Source: Shigella phage Sfk20. From it: a stretch of DNA of 64,000 nucleotides. The stretch lies in sequence record MW341595; one strand, 5' to 3'. Positions 2,744 through 64,000 of this stretch are shown one piece after another; position 1 is the stretch's first letter; every line of letters starts with the position of its first letter. Made by a program: the position numbers and the translations under genes. The notes below the pieces were generated by a model. It was given only the letters and a program-made list of their open reading frames with translations, was not told where the DNA came from and ran no database searches.

Positions 2744-3968
<1,225 letters not shown>

Positions 3969-3971
3969 TTA

Positions 3972-4196
3972 TTATTTCTCAACCAACGATTGAATATAAT
4001 CATGTAGGTCTTTAGATGCTTTACCCCACTTATTTTGGTATTCATTTTTAAGATTAGCACGTGATTGAGCTAATAAAACATCATTAGTTGGAGGTAAAGA
4101 TTCTAACCGCTGAATCTGGCGTCCGTAAATCATTGCAGCCATCTCGGATTCATAAATCAATCCTTTGAGATGTTCAAATTGATGCCATGAAATCAT
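3972..4196 (-). CDS. hypothetical protein (74 aa)
   Basis: ORF track. Confidence 0.5.
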   Translation of the reverse strand: MISWHQFEHLKGLIYESEMAAMIYGRQIQRLESLPPTNDVLLAQSRANLKNEYQNKWGKASKDLHDYIQSLVEK

Positions 4197-4492
4197 TTAC
4201 ATTTATCCTCTTTTAACTCTTGGCGATAATAACATATCATAGTTTTCTGATCATGTACATATCGTTTTACATCATTAAGCCAAATACGAAATTCCTGGGA
4301 ATCTTCAAATGGCATACCGACCCAAGCTTTACCATCAATAACTTTAACTTGCCAGGATAGTTTAGCTTCATCATATGACTTTATTTGTACTGGCCAATTA
4401 GGATGAACTGTTTCTTTCTTTACTTCTAGAGGCTTTGTCGAACAACCAACTAGAAGACCAATAGATAATATTACTGCTGATAGTTTAATCAT
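4193..4492 (-). CDS. outer-membrane spanin lipoprotein (Rz1-like, separate architecture)
   Basis: 99 aa; signal peptide with lipobox LLVGC; adjacent to i-spanin-like ORF; position next to pseT as for T4 spanins. Confidence 0.6.
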   Translation of the reverse strand: MIKLSAVILSIGLLVGCSTKPLEVKKETVHPNWPVQIKSYDEAKLSWQVKVIDGKAWVGMPFEDSQEFRIWLNDVKRYVHDQKTMICYYRQELKEDKCK

Positions 4493-51976: not shown

Positions 51977-52495
51977 TTAATAACCTCGGTCTTGACGAGC
52001 GAAGTTTTCAGCATTTTTCAGATAATAAAGTTTAAAGATTTCTTCAGCCGTAAGACCGAGACCTTGGAACATGTTCAGAACGAAATGAAGAATATCAATC
52101 ATTTCGAATTTAATTTCCAACTGGTCTTGTGGAGATAAGTCAGTAATCAGAGTTTCACGACGTTCACCGTGTTGCGACTTCCAAGGCTTCCATACAGCAG
52201 ATGCATCTTTTTCGCCATTGCTCATACCACCAAGAGAAGTCAGAAGTTCGCGGAATTCATCATCAATATAATCTTTCTGATTACGCAGCCAATCAACAAC
52301 TTCACCTGCAGTAGCCAAATCATCAGGATGACGGTTATATTCAGGTTTATCTTTAGCTAAACGAACCTGCAGAGATTTCTGCATATCAAGCATAACTTGC
52401 AACGGATCTTTTTCATCACCGAGAATATCCCAGTATTCATTTTGAGCTTTATCAGCGCCTTCAATCAGTTGACTACATTCATTAAAGTAAGCCAT
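51977..52495 (-). CDS. 56: dCTP pyrophosphatase gp56
   Basis: about 172 aa from internal ATG (MAYFNECSQLIEGADKAQNEYWD...); matches T4 gp56. Confidence 0.9.
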   Translation of the reverse strand: MAYFNECSQLIEGADKAQNEYWDILGDEKDPLQVMLDMQKSLQVRLAKDKPEYNRHPDDLATAGEVVDWLRNQKDYIDDEFRELLTSLGGMSNGEKDASAVWKPWKSQHGERRETLITDLSPQDQLEIKFEMIDILHFVLNMFQGLGLTAEEIFKLYYLKNAENFARQDRGY

Positions 52496-52529
52496 TATTT
52501 TTCCTTTCAATTCATGGGTTAGTAGATTA

Positions 52530-52555
52530 ATTATACAATAAATATATAAAGCAAT
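52530..52555 (-). promoter_or_regulatory. MotA-dependent middle promoter for gene 56
   Basis: minus-sense ATTGCTTTA (MotA box) -11nt- TATAAT. Confidence 0.55.
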
Positions 52556-52566
52556 AAGGAGGACAT

Positions 52567-52767
52567 ATGGTACAAAAATTAATGGCACTTGTTAATGCCA
52601 TAAAAGGTAATAAAAAACGTATAGCTTTTACTATTTCTGCTATGGTAGGAATTTTACTCTGGAATTTTGTTTTATCACCAATTGCTATTGCTCATGGTGT
52701 TAATATTCCAGTAATTACTCTTGATACATTCGTAGATTTAGCATTTGCTTTGGTTGGGTTAATTTAA
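52567..52767 (+). CDS. plus-strand small membrane protein (66 aa)
   Basis: ORF track; AAGGAGG RBS 6 nt before ATG; hydrophobic segments; lies antisense to the 61-56 intergenic region. Confidence 0.4.
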   Translation: MVQKLMALVNAIKGNKKRIAFTISAMVGILLWNFVLSPIAIAHGVNIPVITLDTFVDLAFALVGLI

Positions 52768-56260: not shown

Positions 56261-56623
56261 TTAAAAGAATTTAAATTTTTTCTTTGACCTTTTATTAAAT
56301 GCATCTTGTAGCTGCATTGTAATACATTTTTCTACATGAGGAGCTAACTCAGCTTTTCTTTCTTGGTCAAGAACAGCAAAGTCCATTACGACTTTTCCAT
56401 CAACCCAATCTAATTTTGTCACATACACAATGTGTGTAGAACCGTCTTCTAGTTTAATGACAATCTCCTGGATAACATTTTCCATGGCAGATTTAATTAT
56501 CTTAAGAGATTCATTAAAAAGACGTTCTTTTCTTTCTTCTTCCCCCTCCGAAGAGGGGGATTCGTCGATAATTTCTAGATCTAAATCCAAATCATCTTTA
56601 TTCATTAAATTCTTCCATATCAC
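56261..56623 (-). CDS. 40: gp40-like acidic protein (120 aa)
   Basis: position between uvsX and 41 as T4 gene 40; contains internal GC hairpin. Confidence 0.6.
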   Translation of the reverse strand: MIWKNLMNKDDLDLDLEIIDESPSSEGEEERKERLFNESLKIIKSAMENVIQEIVIKLEDGSTHIVYVTKLDWVDGKVVMDFAVLDQERKAELAPHVEKCITMQLQDAFNKRSKKKFKFF

Positions 56624-57779
56624 TTAACTGATCTAGGTCAGTTTCTAAATCAGCTGCTGATTTACTTTTACTTTCTGGAGATTTAAATTTTTCAACCTTT
56701 GAGTTAATCAATTCATCAACTTCAGCTTCAACAATTTCATTACTATCAATAGCACCTAACTGATAAGCGCGTTTAATAGCATCTCGGAATGGTTGATGCT
56801 TAAATAAAGGACCCCAGAATGTAGTGCAGTTGGTATCTTTTGCACGCCAAGATTTTTCTTCGCGAATCATCTCGCCGGTTTCTTCGTCAAGAAATTCACG
56901 AGCATACCAGCCATTTTTAGGTTTTACCACAAATCCTAATTCAAGAGCCATATCTAACAATCCAGAATAAGGATCGATACCACCGTCAAATTTAACATCA
57001 ATAAAGAATTTACTTTTTTCTTTAACAGTGCGAGATTTTTCTACATTTAGAACAAATTGATACCCCTGAAGATCAGAACCATCTTTAATCTGGCGCTTAC
57101 CGATAATGAATACAGTATCAGCCGAATACATTACGCCTGTACCACCTGTCATCACGGTTTTACTAAACATTTCAATGGTTTCAATTGTATGGTTAACCGC
57201 AACACATGGAATGTTTTTAATACTAAAATAAGGAGTAACAATACGGAATAATGACTTCAGTGATTTAGCACGAGTCATATCTGCCACAGATTTTTCATTT
57301 AAGGCATCTTCCGTTTCTTTCTTAGAAGCCATATTACCAATTGAGTCGATGAATACAATAACTTTTTCACCGCGCTCAATAGCTTCAAGCTGATTCACCA
57401 TATCAATTTTCAGCTGTTCAACTGACTGAATTGGTGTATGAATTACTCGTTCCGGGTCAACTCCCATGGATCGCAAATAAGCTGGAGTAATACCAAATTC
57501 GCTATCATAAAATAGACATACCGCGTCAGGATATTTGTTCAAATACGCCGCAACCATAGTCAAAGACATATTTGATTTAAAGTGTTTAGAAGGACCTGCA
57601 AAAATGGTTAAACCAGACTGCATACCACCATCAATCGCACCAGAAATAGCGATATTAAGCATTGGGATTTTTGTACGGATTACATCCTTTTCATTAAAGA
57701 ATTTAGATGTAGTCAGTTCAGCAGTCATTTTAGAAGTGGAAGCTTTAATCAAACGGGATTTTAAATCTGCAATAGACAT
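56598..57779 (-). CDS. uvsX: recombinase UvsX (RecA-like)
   Basis: 393 aa; matches T4 UvsX. Confidence 0.95.
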   Translation of the reverse strand: MSIADLKSRLIKASTSKMTAELTTSKFFNEKDVIRTKIPMLNIAISGAIDGGMQSGLTIFAGPSKHFKSNMSLTMVAAYLNKYPDAVCLFYDSEFGITPAYLRSMGVDPERVIHTPIQSVEQLKIDMVNQLEAIERGEKVIVFIDSIGNMASKKETEDALNEKSVADMTRAKSLKSLFRIVTPYFSIKNIPCVAVNHTIETIEMFSKTVMTGGTGVMYSADTVFIIGKRQIKDGSDLQGYQFVLNVEKSRTVKEKSKFFIDVKFDGGIDPYSGLLDMALELGFVVKPKNGWYAREFLDEETGEMIREEKSWRAKDTNCTTFWGPLFKHQPFRDAIKRAYQLGAIDSNEIVEAEVDELINSKVEKFKSPESKSKSAADLETDLDQLSDMEEFNE

Positions 57780-57856
57780 TCATTTTTTCCATAGGCAACA
57801 TTATATTTTCCTCACTGGTTAAAGATAGAATAATTATAACACAATAAATTTAGGCA

Positions 57857-58699
57857 TTAATCAACTGCTATTGGATGAATAGCATTAAACTTATGAAACG
57901 CTTCTGATTTTTCTTTGCGCGAAACACACATGCGAAGAACCTTTAATGGCTCGTCTTCTTCACCCAACGATTTTCTCTTTTCAATATTCGATGTTTTCCA
58001 ACGAGCTTGCTCTGGAAACTCTCTATTGATTTGCTCAAGAGCTCTATTATGTTTTGAATTACTACGAATTGAACTGCACCCGCCAGGAGCTTGCGCTTTT
58101 CCGGATACAACCAGATATTTGAACAAGGCCAAATGCGGATAACCTTGATTAATTAAATTGAGAAATGCATACATATCTTCGCATAAATCAATTTTTCCAT
58201 ACCCAATTTGTTCTGTTGTAAGTTTTCCGAGGTCATACCAAGTATTCGTGAATCCATATGAATTTTCACGATAATTACCCCAAGATGAAGTAATTTTAAA
58301 AATTGGTAAACGAGCATGACCATGATAATACCCGCAATCCATGGCATCTTCAACGTATTGAATCAATTCATAGAACTGTTCACGAGTTAACTGATTAATT
58401 TTATCTACGCAGCGACGATCATCTTTCTTTCGCATTGAACTCATACGAATAGTAGTATCATCATCAATCATCCAAATTCGTTGACCTGCATACATATCAG
58501 TAATTGCTTTACGAGTACCAGCAATTCCATTAACATCATCAGGAATAGTTATAATTTTAGCTCTAGACCCGTAAGCGTCATAATAAGCTTTTTCTTCGTG
58601 TTCACGTACTACAATATGAGGTTCATAATCAGTCGGAAACATATCAAGGGCAGAAACTGCCCCTACGCGTTGATAGCTTGGAATTACGAATTGAATCAT
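57857..58699 (-). CDS. GT-A-type glycosyltransferase at the beta-gt locus
   Basis: about 280 aa from ATG overlapping gene 42 stop (ATGA); VIPSYQR start and WMIDDD (DxD) motif. Confidence 0.6.
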   Translation of the reverse strand: MIQFVIPSYQRVGAVSALDMFPTDYEPHIVVREHEEKAYYDAYGSRAKIITIPDDVNGIAGTRKAITDMYAGQRIWMIDDDTTIRMSSMRKKDDRRCVDKINQLTREQFYELIQYVEDAMDCGYYHGHARLPIFKITSSWGNYRENSYGFTNTWYDLGKLTTEQIGYGKIDLCEDMYAFLNLINQGYPHLALFKYLVVSGKAQAPGGCSSIRSNSKHNRALEQINREFPEQARWKTSNIEKRKSLGEEDEPLKVLRMCVSRKEKSEAFHKFNAIHPIAVD

Positions 58700-59436
58700 T
58701 TCCACTCACCATTATAATCTTTTTTCGCAATATGAGTTTCGCCAGTTTTCCACCAATGGTCAACCAAATAAAAATGACGGGAATACACATGAAGGCTTCC
58801 GACATTCCATATAATGGAACCTGCTTTATACTGACGAGTTGAATCACCTGCATTCAAATCAGATACTAATTTATCTAGTACGTATTTTTGCCATGCATAA
58901 TCATTACGGAATCCGAAGACCACGTCATTTGAACGCATGCTTACTACTGCATTGACTTTCTTATCACGAATCAGGTACTGTACTGTATTCGTACACATGA
59001 AATCTGACATACCATCTTTATTGTAGTCAAACTGCATGGATGGACGAGTATAAATCATGATACCACGTCGAGAATCAGGATTTTGACCAAGTTCAGCTAA
59101 ACACATATCATACTGGGCATAGTTATCTTCTGACCAGATGGCCCAACCATAATTCGAGTTAATTTCGCCTTTAGAAGATGCTACCTGTTGCCAAATCTTC
59201 GGTGTTTCACCCGGAATATCTTTAACAAACAAACTTTTAGATTTATACCATTCAAGTTCACGCTGAATGTATTCATCATTAAGAGCGCCAAAAATAAACG
59301 GTTCATCTGCTACAAATGATGCGCCAATAATTTCAATAGTTTTAACGCCAGTTTTATCAATTACGAAATCTTTTTCCTTTAACGCAATTCCCAAATGAAG
59401 ACGAGTTTCTTCAACTGTCAAAGAGTCATTAATCAT
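58696..59436 (-). CDS. 42: dCMP hydroxymethylase gp42
   Basis: 246 aa; matches T4 gp42. Confidence 0.95.
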   Translation of the reverse strand: MINDSLTVEETRLHLGIALKEKDFVIDKTGVKTIEIIGASFVADEPFIFGALNDEYIQRELEWYKSKSLFVKDIPGETPKIWQQVASSKGEINSNYGWAIWSEDNYAQYDMCLAELGQNPDSRRGIMIYTRPSMQFDYNKDGMSDFMCTNTVQYLIRDKKVNAVVSMRSNDVVFGFRNDYAWQKYVLDKLVSDLNAGDSTRQYKAGSIIWNVGSLHVYSRHFYLVDHWWKTGETHIAKKDYNGEWK

Positions 59437-59443
59437 TTAAACC

Positions 59444-59593
59444 TCAATTGATACATTCATATTTAACTTGTAACAGTAATAAACTCCACCCTATAATAAG
59501 CGTTGGAATCATACAAGGAACCGTTACGCTATAGTATATACTTATTATAATCATCAAGATTAAAAGCAATACTGTTAAAATTTTGCTTTTCAT
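59444..59593 (-). CDS. small membrane protein (49 aa) coupled to imm
   Basis: manual translation MKSKILTVLLLILMIIISIYYSVTVPCMIPTLIIGWSLLL...; ATG overlaps imm stop (ATGA). Confidence 0.4.
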   Translation of the reverse strand: MKSKILTVLLLILMIIISIYYSVTVPCMIPTLIIGWSLLLLQVKYECIN

Positions 59594-59841
59594 TCCTTCT
59601 CTCTGATGATAATTACTTGATTTGGTTGTGCGGATTTTTTAGTTTCACCCGCAATTGACCAAATAAATGTAATAAACCAACCAATAATTGACCAGTTAAA
59701 CAGTAAAGATGTAAAAAAGATTCCTACTGTCGATTTTGACCCGCGCATCAAGGCGATGAACCATGGAAGCATGTATATAATAATAGCCAACACGCCTGAT
59801 ACTAAAACCATAAAAATTGAACCTGCTACTAAAGTTTCCAT
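59590..59841 (-). CDS. imm: immunity (superinfection exclusion) membrane protein Imm
   Basis: 83 aa, two TM helices; matches T4 Imm. Confidence 0.9.
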   Translation of the reverse strand: METLVAGSIFMVLVSGVLAIIIYMLPWFIALMRGSKSTVGIFFTSLLFNWSIIGWFITFIWSIAGETKKSAQPNQVIIIREKE

Positions 59842-59848
59842 GCTTTCC

Positions 59849-60229
59849 TCACTTAGTCAAATTTTTTACACATGAATTATAAGAATTCACTACATACTCC
59901 ATCGGAGCATTTTTACCTGTGCGCCATTGGTAATTATTAGCCCAATTAGCCCAAAGTTCGGCGCAGTAGTTTTCAATTTTTTCTTCGCGTGTAATTACAT
60001 CTGAATTACGATATGCTTGAGCAGATTCATCTGGACGAATAGCTTCGTCAAAATTCGCCTGCATTTGTTCTACTGTCTGTTTTGGAGCCTCTTTATAACA
60101 CTTAACATTAGGATTATAAAATTTGCTTGAACAATTTACAATTTTTCCTGCATCAGACTGATTTACTACCGGTCCTTGAGCTACACAACCAGTAAGACCC
60201 AATGCAATAACCAAAATAGCGATTTTCAT
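59849..60229 (-). CDS. putative lipoprotein (126 aa, six Cys)
   Basis: signal peptide with lipobox LTGC (MKIAILVIALGLTGC...); own promoter and upstream terminator. Confidence 0.55.
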   Translation of the reverse strand: MKIAILVIALGLTGCVAQGPVVNQSDAGKIVNCSSKFYNPNVKCYKEAPKQTVEQMQANFDEAIRPDESAQAYRNSDVITREEKIENYCAELWANWANNYQWRTGKNAPMEYVVNSYNSCVKNLTK

Positions 60230-60250
60230 TTCATTCTCCAAATCTGTATC

Positions 60251-60293
60251 AGTTGATAGTTATATAGTACCAAAGAGGAACAGTCTTGTAAAC
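60251..60293 (-). promoter_or_regulatory. early promoter/stem-loop cassette
   Basis: GTTTAC plus shared block with the 34123-34156 and 34604-34644 elements. Confidence 0.5.
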
Positions 60294-60373
60294 AGTTTTG
60301 TGAAAAATTTTTTAATGAATTCCAAAGGTCCAGAATCATCTATTTTTTCCTAAGTATAGATTTATATTACTTG

Positions 60374-60399
60374 TATGAAAAAGGGACCCGGAGGTCCCC
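60374..60399 (-). terminator. rho-independent terminator after gene 43
   Basis: minus-sense GGGGACC-TCCG-GGTCCC followed by TTTTTC. Confidence 0.65.
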
Positions 60400-60411
60400 A
60401 GATTTATTCTA

Positions 60412-63108
60412 TCAGCCAAACAGGAAGTCTAACGAAGCTTTTTCCTCATAGTCCATACCTGCCGATTCACACATACCAGCAAGAGGTTTAACAAACGATT
60501 TTTGGAACAAAGTTGAGTAGTCAATCCAAGACAGTACGTCAGAACGAATTTCTTTTGGAAGTTCTGTACCCGACGGCCAAGCAATGCACTTGTCACCAAA
60601 CGGATTTCCTTCGCGTAATGGAAGAACCATTACCTTATTTCCATCCAAAATTGGAGCTACACCTAAACCGCTAACAGCTCGACGATAAGTTAGCACACCG
60701 CGAATATGGAACGGGCATTTAAATCCTGGCCAGCCTTTATCATCATATTTCGCTATATCGTTCGCAGTTTTTACTTCAGCAATAACTTTATAGTCAAGTT
60801 GACGATATTCTTTCTCAAAGTTCTTGTAGTATTCTTGGACAGACTCTTCACCTTCCTGAAGAATACGACGAATACTTTCTTCGAGAGCTTCTTGTACTGC
60901 TTTTGGTGTTGAACTCTGTTGAGTTTCCATACCCATGATTTTTAAATGCGGTTCGGCAAATCGCTTATCTTCCATATCATAAACGTTCAGAGCATAACGT
61001 TTTTTCGCTTTCCAAAATCCACCAACACCCTTTGAACCAAGTGGAGGGCAAGAAATAGCTTCACGGTCCATATGCATCAGATGCTCGCGGTTATTCATAT
61101 AATCACATAACTCACGATATGCAACATCAATCATAGGTTCCATCTTTTTCTTACCAAACTGATTCATGAATTCAACTAAATCATTTTGTTCTTTAAAGCG
61201 ATCAAGACCTACTTTTTCAATAACTTTATCTACACAAACATATACCGAATCAGTATCACCTGCTGCGATGAAATCTTCACCATTAGTTCCACATACTTTA
61301 TTTAGATACTCATTAATTTTACGAGCAATCCATTGAATACCGACTTGACCGAAAATTGTGATAGCAGTAGCATTTCGCAAATCATAGTAGCGAAAATGAA
61401 TATTACCAAGAGCACCATAAAGACTGTTAATAAGAATTTTACGGTTCAGCTGATTTGTGTTAGCAAGCGTAGCTGCTTTTTCACATTCTTCGATCAGACT
61501 ATTAAGAACAGATTCAGTGTAATTCGATAATTCGTTTAAGAAATCATCATTGAACTTAACATATCGTTCAACTTCCGGTTTAGTTGAACAGGACCCTGCA
61601 CCTTTCATAATAATCTTTTTAATAGCTTCGGCATTCATTTCTTCCGCGAACATTTTCTTTTTCCAATCTTTACGCTGGAAAAATACTTTAGCGATTTCCT
61701 TTGGAATGATACCTTCTTGGTGCTTATCATACATCCATCCATTCGGAGAGCAAGAATATTCATCACTTGGCTTAGGAGCTGTTCCTGCGATATATTCATG
61801 AATTGGATGAACTTTAAACTGCCCACGAATAGTCTCAGGACTAATGTTAACCTGACGAATAATGCTAGGATACAGAGACGTCAAGTCAAAACTCATAATG
61901 TATCGACGAGCAATCGGTTTAGGTTCAAACACAAATGCACCTGGAAAACTCTGTTTAACGTGCGAACCTTGTTGAGGAATAACCTTATGTTCACCTTTCA
62001 GTGAGTTAAAAATAATAGCATCCCAAGTTTTAATAGGACTCATTACACCAGAAAAAGGCATTTTAGCGTAATAAGACATACTTAAAACTAGATCGATAAA
62101 CCCACGAATTTTATCAATTGCTTGAACTGATTCTACGTCAATGATGTTATAACTAATGTATCGTTGATGATTAGTCTCACGAAGTTTATTAATAGGACCA
62201 TCGTACGGCAATTTACCTTTTTTGGTTTCATGTTGAGCAACTGATTCCAAAGAGAACGATGGCAAATTAGTAAATGCGAATTTCTTGTACAAATCTAAAT
62301 AATCAAGAATAGATACGCCATCAATAGAATAAATTTCTTTACTACCGTACATATTTTGAATTAGTTTAGATTTTACTCGACCGATTGGAGAGAAGCGTTT
62401 CATACTACGTTCACCGAGAACCATTTTAACACGATTCATGATATACGGAACGTCAAATCCCTCAATATTCCAACCGGTAAAAATAGCAGGTCGTTTCTGT
62501 TCCCAGAGATTAATATATTCCATGAGCATATCACGCTCATTATCAAATGGCATATAAATTACTCGGTCAAGAATTTCTTGAGGAACTTCATCACCACCTT
62601 CACAGTCAAGCTTAGCAGCTAACTTTGCGTCCCATTTTGATACTGAACCGTACATTGAATTCAACAAATCAAAGACGTAAAAACGGTCGTCAATTGAATC
62701 ATAATGAGTGATAGCATCAATTTCATATTCTGCTTTCATTGGGTCAGGAAATTTATCACCAGTAACCTCAATGTCACAGTTAGCTACACGAACAAATTTT
62801 CGGTCATAAACAATTTCTGAACCATATGTATCACTGATATAAGCGAGTTTAAAATCGTTCATACCGAGAGCTTCGAGACCGATGTCTTCCATTCGCTTCA
62901 TCCAGTCTCGTGCATCTTTCATTGATGGAAATTTTTGAGGAGCACAGTTTTTACCATAAATGTCTTTGTACTTTGACTCTTCCTTACAATGCCTAAACAT
63001 AGTCGGAAGATATTCTACTTCACGAGTACGTTCCTTTCCATTTTCATCAATATAACGCTCAACAATATTATTTCCGACTGTTTCGATAGAGATATAAAAT
63101 TCTTTCAT
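60412..63108 (-). CDS. 43: DNA polymerase gp43 (family B)
   Basis: 898 aa; near-identical to T4 gp43 along its length (MKEFYISIETVGNNIVERYIDENGKERTREVEY...). Confidence 0.98.
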   Translation of the reverse strand: MKEFYISIETVGNNIVERYIDENGKERTREVEYLPTMFRHCKEESKYKDIYGKNCAPQKFPSMKDARDWMKRMEDIGLEALGMNDFKLAYISDTYGSEIVYDRKFVRVANCDIEVTGDKFPDPMKAEYEIDAITHYDSIDDRFYVFDLLNSMYGSVSKWDAKLAAKLDCEGGDEVPQEILDRVIYMPFDNERDMLMEYINLWEQKRPAIFTGWNIEGFDVPYIMNRVKMVLGERSMKRFSPIGRVKSKLIQNMYGSKEIYSIDGVSILDYLDLYKKFAFTNLPSFSLESVAQHETKKGKLPYDGPINKLRETNHQRYISYNIIDVESVQAIDKIRGFIDLVLSMSYYAKMPFSGVMSPIKTWDAIIFNSLKGEHKVIPQQGSHVKQSFPGAFVFEPKPIARRYIMSFDLTSLYPSIIRQVNISPETIRGQFKVHPIHEYIAGTAPKPSDEYSCSPNGWMYDKHQEGIIPKEIAKVFFQRKDWKKKMFAEEMNAEAIKKIIMKGAGSCSTKPEVERYVKFNDDFLNELSNYTESVLNSLIEECEKAATLANTNQLNRKILINSLYGALGNIHFRYYDLRNATAITIFGQVGIQWIARKINEYLNKVCGTNGEDFIAAGDTDSVYVCVDKVIEKVGLDRFKEQNDLVEFMNQFGKKKMEPMIDVAYRELCDYMNNREHLMHMDREAISCPPLGSKGVGGFWKAKKRYALNVYDMEDKRFAEPHLKIMGMETQQSSTPKAVQEALEESIRRILQEGEESVQEYYKNFEKEYRQLDYKVIAEVKTANDIAKYDDKGWPGFKCPFHIRGVLTYRRAVSGLGVAPILDGNKVMVLPLREGNPFGDKCIAWPSGTELPKEIRSDVLSWIDYSTLFQKSFVKPLAGMCESAGMDYEEKASLDFLFG

Positions 63109-63556: not shown

Positions 63557-64000
63557 TTACCATTCCAATGCTAGTTTTTTGAGTTGTTTCTGTTCTTTTA
63601 CGTTCTTAGTCACTTCTTTCAAAAAATCATCCGTGACTAAACCTTTTAGTTCTTTTAATACTAAAGGAAGTTTTCCATTTTTAGTAAGAATTGATTTATA
63701 GTTAATTGCATCATTTGTATTAACTTGATACCGCTTAGCAAGTAACTTAATAATCAATACTTCAGTAGAATCTTCGACAAGTTTTGCCCATTTACCATAT
63801 CTTTTACCCCGAGGAACAGCAGCCATCAGATAATTAAAATGGGCTTCATCGCTTAAACCTGATCCAATTAAATTCATAGCATATACAGCTGGCATGCATT
63901 CAGGAAATTGTGATAATGCATTCTCAACCATGTATTTTGAATAATCTTTTTGAACAATAGAGCATTTAGTTTTATTATTAATAGCTCCAATTATTTCAAA
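63557..64000 (-). CDS. 62: clamp loader small subunit gp62, C-terminal part (start lies beyond window end)
   Basis: frame stays open to position 64000; matches C-terminal two thirds of T4 gp62. Confidence 0.9.

Follow-up and report, generated by a model that had tools for sequence, protein, structure and literature searches.

A T2/T6-type glucosyltransferase gene between uvsX and gene 42 of Shigella phage Sfk20

The stretch of DNA analysed here, referred to as the window, comprises 64,000 nucleotides of Shigella phage Sfk20 (sequence record MW341595). Its minus strand carries an intact open reading frame of 280 codons at 57857..58699, running from an ATG at 58699..58697 to a TAA at 57859..57857, which we call ggt. 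A program-made list of reading frames lengthened it by two codons to an upstream GTG at 58705, giving 282 aa, whereas the ATG form of 843 nt is the version annotated in phages pSs-1, T2, CP and BGP. The encoded protein begins MIQFVIPSYQR and contains the internal sequence RIWMIDDDTT, with D79-D81 encoded at 58457..58465. A gene of about 280 aa with a VIPSYQR start and a WMIDDD motif had been proposed here from the sequence, and the reading frame, its length and both motifs were all found. A megablast search recovered ggt at full length in 474 of the 479 phage records matched, at 90-99% nucleotide identity, and it is therefore not a chance reading frame. Many of these records label the gene beta-glucosyl-HMC-alpha-glucosyltransferase.

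The placement of the gene between uvsX and gene 42 in the original prediction also held, as both neighbours were identified by tblastn. Gene 42 (58696..59436, minus strand) encodes the dCMP hydroxymethylase that makes the hydroxymethylcytosine (hmC) precursor, and its product is 95.5% identical to T4 gp42 over 245 aa. Downstream of ggt lies uvsX (56598..57779, minus strand), 99.7% identical to T6 UvsX. Gene 42 ends in GEWK followed by a TGA at 58698..58696, and this stop codon overlaps the ggt start codon in a 4-nt ATGA (58696..58699, minus strand; ...ggt gag tgg aaA TGA ttc...), as had been predicted. The same overlap is annotated in pSs-1, T2, CP and BGP, and the arrangement suggests that ggt and gene 42 may be co-transcribed and translationally coupled. 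A scan of 57500..60500 for sigma-70 promoters found 16, compared with 11.8 +/- 3.0 in shuffled sequence; since this is no excess, we claim no promoter for ggt. A terminator scan picked out a GC-rich hairpin of 9 bp (GGGGCAG-TTT-CTGCCC region) with a T-rich stretch after it at 58645..58665 on the minus strand. It lies near the start of ggt, inside the initial 55 coding nucleotides, and has the same sequence in T6.

The order gene 42-ggt-uvsX is common to T2, T6, pSs-1, CP and BGP, and in these phages, as in the window (57780..57856), nothing but a 77-nt spacer separates ggt from uvsX. In T4, by contrast, the GIY-YIG homing endonuclease gene segA (T4 3571..4236) lies between b-gt and uvsX, whereas no match to segA was found in the window. 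More widely, the window comes from a Tequatrovirus and, over 24 kb, shares 97-98% identity with phages that include ECp13, ESh16 and pSs-1. Genes 40, 41, 61, imm, imm.1, 43 and regA were also recognised in it by tblastn, and the window stops, at position 64000, within gene 62. A homologue of the gp56 dCTPase is encoded at 51977..52495 on the minus strand; tblastn with T6 gp56 aligned all 172 aa at 71.5% identity (51980..52495). As the dCTPase is needed for the exclusion of cytosine, its presence implies that hmC takes the place of C. No match to alpha-gt was found within the 64-kb window. In pSs-1, T2, T6 and CP this gene lies some 11-13 kb beyond gene 42, and the equivalent point here is past position 64000; judging from these relatives, an alpha-gt partner is probably encoded outside the window.

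Three further features of the segment were observed. The gp56 homologue is only 71.5% identical to its T6 counterpart while the flanking 61, 41, 40 and uvsX are 98-100% identical, marking a locally mosaic segment (51977..52588), and the mechanically called frame over this interval on the minus strand gives 203 aa from a GTG compared with the 172-aa T6 protein. Just 3' of the gene 43 stop codon and ahead of imm.1, a strong terminator-like hairpin, GGGGACCTCCGGGTCCC, is followed by TTTTT (60382..60399, minus strand). Between imm and gene 42 there is a hydrophobic reading frame of 49 codons (59444..59593, minus strand; MKSKILTVLLLILMIIISIYY...), with intact counterparts in T4, T2, T6, pSs-1, CP and BGP at 86-92% conservation. 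The T4 RefSeq, T2 and T6 records have no annotated coding sequence at this place, and the frame may represent a small membrane protein absent from the reference annotation.

The ggt protein is 100% identical to pSs-1 YP_009110862.1. It differs from the T2 enzyme by four substitutions (R11H, K92R, I101V and P251S; 98.6% identity) and from that of Durham phage CP by three residues, and it is 98% identical to the T6 and BGP proteins; the comparison with the T2 and T6 transferases called for in the original prediction thus gave 98-99% identity over the full length. PHROG 842, 'beta-glucosyl-HMC-alpha-glucosyltransferase', matches residues 1-275 with an E-value of 5.6e-89, and Pfam PF20691 (TAGT, TET-associated glycosyltransferase) scores 38.8 bits, above its curated gathering cutoff of 27.5 bits, across profile positions 2-205 of 205. 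The window copy shares with the T2/T6 enzyme its 280-aa length, its locus, its ATGA overlap and its motifs, and nothing of substance separates them. The gene is undamaged in the window, but has a lesion in each of the two public T6 records. The gene therefore belongs within the T2/T6 family, beyond mere resemblance to it. The family enzyme, also named ba-gt, g-gt or TAGT, is EC 2.4.1.28, glucosyl-DNA beta-glucosyltransferase, and Winkler and Rueger reportedly described its original cloning in 1993.

The lesions differ between the two T6 records. In MH550421.1 (7924..7980), ggt codon 10 reads TAG instead of the CAG of the other T6 record (the equivalent here is 58670..58672), and the annotation begins at the internal Met20, giving a 261-aa product. 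In AP018814.1 (7135..7974), one GAT of the GAT-GAT-GAT run encoding DDD is missing (the equivalent here is 58457..58465), leaving 279 aa. The gene is intact in T2, pSs-1, CP, BGP and the window. It is possible that laboratory stocks of T6 have lost the second glucosyltransferase, or that these are sequencing errors.

The locus is one that T4 uses for a different enzyme. T4 beta-gt likewise lies beside gene 42, and according to the literature UDP-glucose is the donor for both enzymes, the linkage made is beta and the substrate is hmC DNA. However, T4 beta-gt is a GT-B enzyme of 351 aa that glucosylates the hydroxymethyl group, whereas ggt is a GT-A enzyme (PMC13216743) of 280 aa whose acceptor is the glucose of alpha-glucosyl-hmC. 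It had been noted that the gene product does not resemble T4 beta-gt (351 aa, starting MKIAIINMGNN), and a BLASTP comparison of the two bears this out, with a best E-value of 3.4 and so no sequence similarity despite the shared locus. A Pfam search of the protein did not find PF09198, the T4 b-gt family, and tblastn with T4 b-gt over the window gave no match below an E-value of 0.7. Membership of the T4 family (GT-B, PF09198) was rejected, as both the sequence and the two-Rossmann-domain fold failed to agree. In the Durham Tequatroviruses, too, TAGT has been described at the site syntenic with T4 beta-GT (PMC13390438).

Neither the protein alone nor a nine-sequence profile retrieved a significant solved relative from PDB sequences, and the fold is therefore taken from a model. 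A homologue search recovered 11 proteins, and an AlphaFold2 model built from a nine-sequence alignment was of moderate confidence, with a mean pLDDT of 73 and a pTM of 0.75, and two loops, 140-149 and 191-211, below pLDDT 50. In this model the protein is unambiguously of the GT-A fold class with a conserved DXD motif, in keeping with the GT-A assignment of the original prediction: an invariant DDD follows the central strand E74-77. This placement, together with the residues that are invariant in the homologues, indicates that the GT-A call is right.

The conserved positions cluster in four segments, all on the minus strand. VIPSYQR (residues 5-11; 58667..58687) forms the first beta-strand, E3-7 in the model, and the loop that follows it. 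I6, P7, S8, Y9 and R11 do not vary among homologues, even those as distant as 29% identity, and the segment aligns with IIPTYNR of the GT2 glucosyltransferase 9jma_A, a weak match (E 0.25), which makes it the putative counterpart of the 'IPxYNR' nucleotide-binding start of GT2 enzymes. DDD (D79-D81; 58457..58465), the DXD motif, aligns with LDDDD of 9jma_A in the same weak match (E 0.25), and we infer that it would bind a divalent metal and the UDP diphosphate. E174-D175 ('CEDMY'; 58175..58180) opens model helix 174-184; D175 is invariant in the alignment and, with the 'ED' base of GT2 enzymes as a guide, is the likely candidate for the catalytic base of an inverting GT-A transferase. Finally, the conserved PGGCSSIR loop (residues 205-212; 58064..58087) lies mostly in the low-confidence model segment 191-211. 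Its G206, G207, S209 and R212 are invariant even in a 29%-identical homologue, and it may be a mobile loop that covers the active site or donor, or contacts the DNA acceptor.

The similarity to cellular inverting GT-A enzymes of family GT2 (such as AvpGT 9jma, TarP 6h1j, BcsA and SpsA) is not significant by sequence, with a best E-value of 0.25, and they differ from ggt in that its acceptor is a sugar on duplex DNA. Assignment to CAZy GT2 was likewise rejected, with 9jma_A at E 0.25 and Pfam giving TAGT rather than Glycos_transf_2. A published analysis puts the TAGTs of phages outside GT2, as its sister group (PMC13216743). We conclude that ggt works like a GT2 inverting GT-A enzyme, and that its resemblance to the GT2 fold is real while sequence membership is not significant.

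Taken with the identity to the T2/T6 enzyme, the GT-A fold, the DXD motif, the synteny and the lack of a T4-type beta-gt in the window, these observations leave us in little doubt that the gene encodes the Tequatrovirus beta-glucosyl-HMC-alpha-glucosyltransferase, which adds a second glucose to alpha-glucosyl-hmC DNA. The reaction, and its protective role against enzymes that recognise alpha-glucosyl-hmC, come from the literature on near-identical (98-100%) proteins. In the proposed pathway, gp42 and gp56 would place hydroxymethylcytosine in the DNA instead of cytosine, an alpha-glucosyltransferase encoded outside the window would add alpha-glucose to about three quarters of the hmC, and the ggt enzyme would transfer a second glucose from UDP-glucose to the 6-OH of the alpha-glucose with inversion. 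The product would be beta-1,6-glucosyl-alpha-glucosyl-hmC, or gentiobiosyl-hmC. Formation of a beta product from UDP-alpha-glucose implies that the mechanism is inverting, as would suit a GT-A enzyme resembling those of GT2. The original prediction of a sugar or linkage different from that of T4 beta-gt was thus correct in outline, the difference being that near-identical enzymes add a beta-1,6-linked second glucose to alpha-glucosyl-hmC.

How far the second glucosylation proceeds is a separate matter. T2 is reported to have only about 5% gentiobiosyl-hmC (PMC6024577, PMC11078745), compared with about 72% for T6 and a range of roughly 40% to two thirds among the Durham phages. As near-identical enzymes span about 5% to about 72%, the amount here is not predictable from sequence. 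The same enzyme might have a minor effect, as in T2, with a few percent of hmC doubly glucosylated and the DNA mostly alpha-glucosyl-hmC and bare hmC. Such a reading departs from the main second-glucose one in extent rather than chemistry, and we consider it unlikely. In its favour, of the positions at which T2 and T6 differ, Y40, D55 and R106 of the ggt protein are the T2 residues. However, R11 and P251 are T6-like, and CP, which differs from the window protein at three residues and has the same Y40, D55 and R106, contains about two thirds gentiobiosyl-hmC with alpha-glucosyl-hmC at background only (PMC13390438). Since high-extent CP has them, these three residues do not dictate a low extent, and prediction of a T2-like or T6-like extent from the variable residues was dropped. 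More speculatively, and with rather lower probability, this allele (K92, I101 and residues like those of T2 at some sites and of T6 at others), or the way it is expressed, could set a distinct level of second glucosylation; if so, natural alleles compared with T2, T6, CP and BGP could map the determinants of its extent.

Two further readings alter the chemistry itself. In the first, the enzyme would be a primary glucosyltransferase acting directly on hmC, a functional replacement of T4 beta-gt. Its gene is indeed syntenic with that of T4 beta-gt, and solitary TAGT homologues are known in phages that have neither alpha-GT nor beta-GT (PMC13216743). Against this, LC-MS of Durham Tequatroviruses with alpha-GT and TAGT, whose genes are 98-99% identical to ggt, detected hmC, alpha-glucosyl-hmC and gentiobiosyl-hmC but no beta-glucosyl-hmC (PMC13390438). 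T6 deleted for ba-gt was taken to retain alpha-glucosyl-hmC only, losing just the second glucose, and its DNA is degraded by Brig1, to which the phage becomes more sensitive (PMC11078745). T6 delta-g-gt DNA releases glucose under the deglucosylase BapA whereas wild-type T6 DNA does not (bioRxiv 10.64898/2026.02.25.707755). T2 and T6, which have no beta-gt, also keep about 25% bare hmC, which should have been glucosylated by a beta-gt acting on it directly, and we regard a primary role as highly improbable. Least probable of all is a donor sugar other than glucose, such as the arabinose of RB69-type Mosigviruses: GT-A enzymes accept many donors and cytosines are arabinosylated in other T4-like phages (PMC6024577, PMC13390438), but the 98-100% identical enzymes belong to phages with the gentiobiose disaccharide, and the window phage, which has gp42, belongs to the Tequatroviruses and not to the Mosigviruses.

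The second-glucose transferase has already been published together with its fold, locus and product, and RefSeq contains the exact protein under the right name, so that no new question is opened. The identification is of use in annotating the phage and in predicting how sensitive it is to defence systems. The presence of ggt instead of beta-gt predicts DNA of the T2/T6 type, in which bare hmC would account for roughly a quarter to a third and beta-glucosyl-hmC would be absent. Gentiobiosyl-hmC withstands Brig1 glycosylase and BapA deglucosylase in vitro but remains a target of GmrSD (PMC11078745, bioRxiv 10.64898/2026.02.25.707755, PMC13216743), and this modification thereby alters which host defences can act on the phage DNA.
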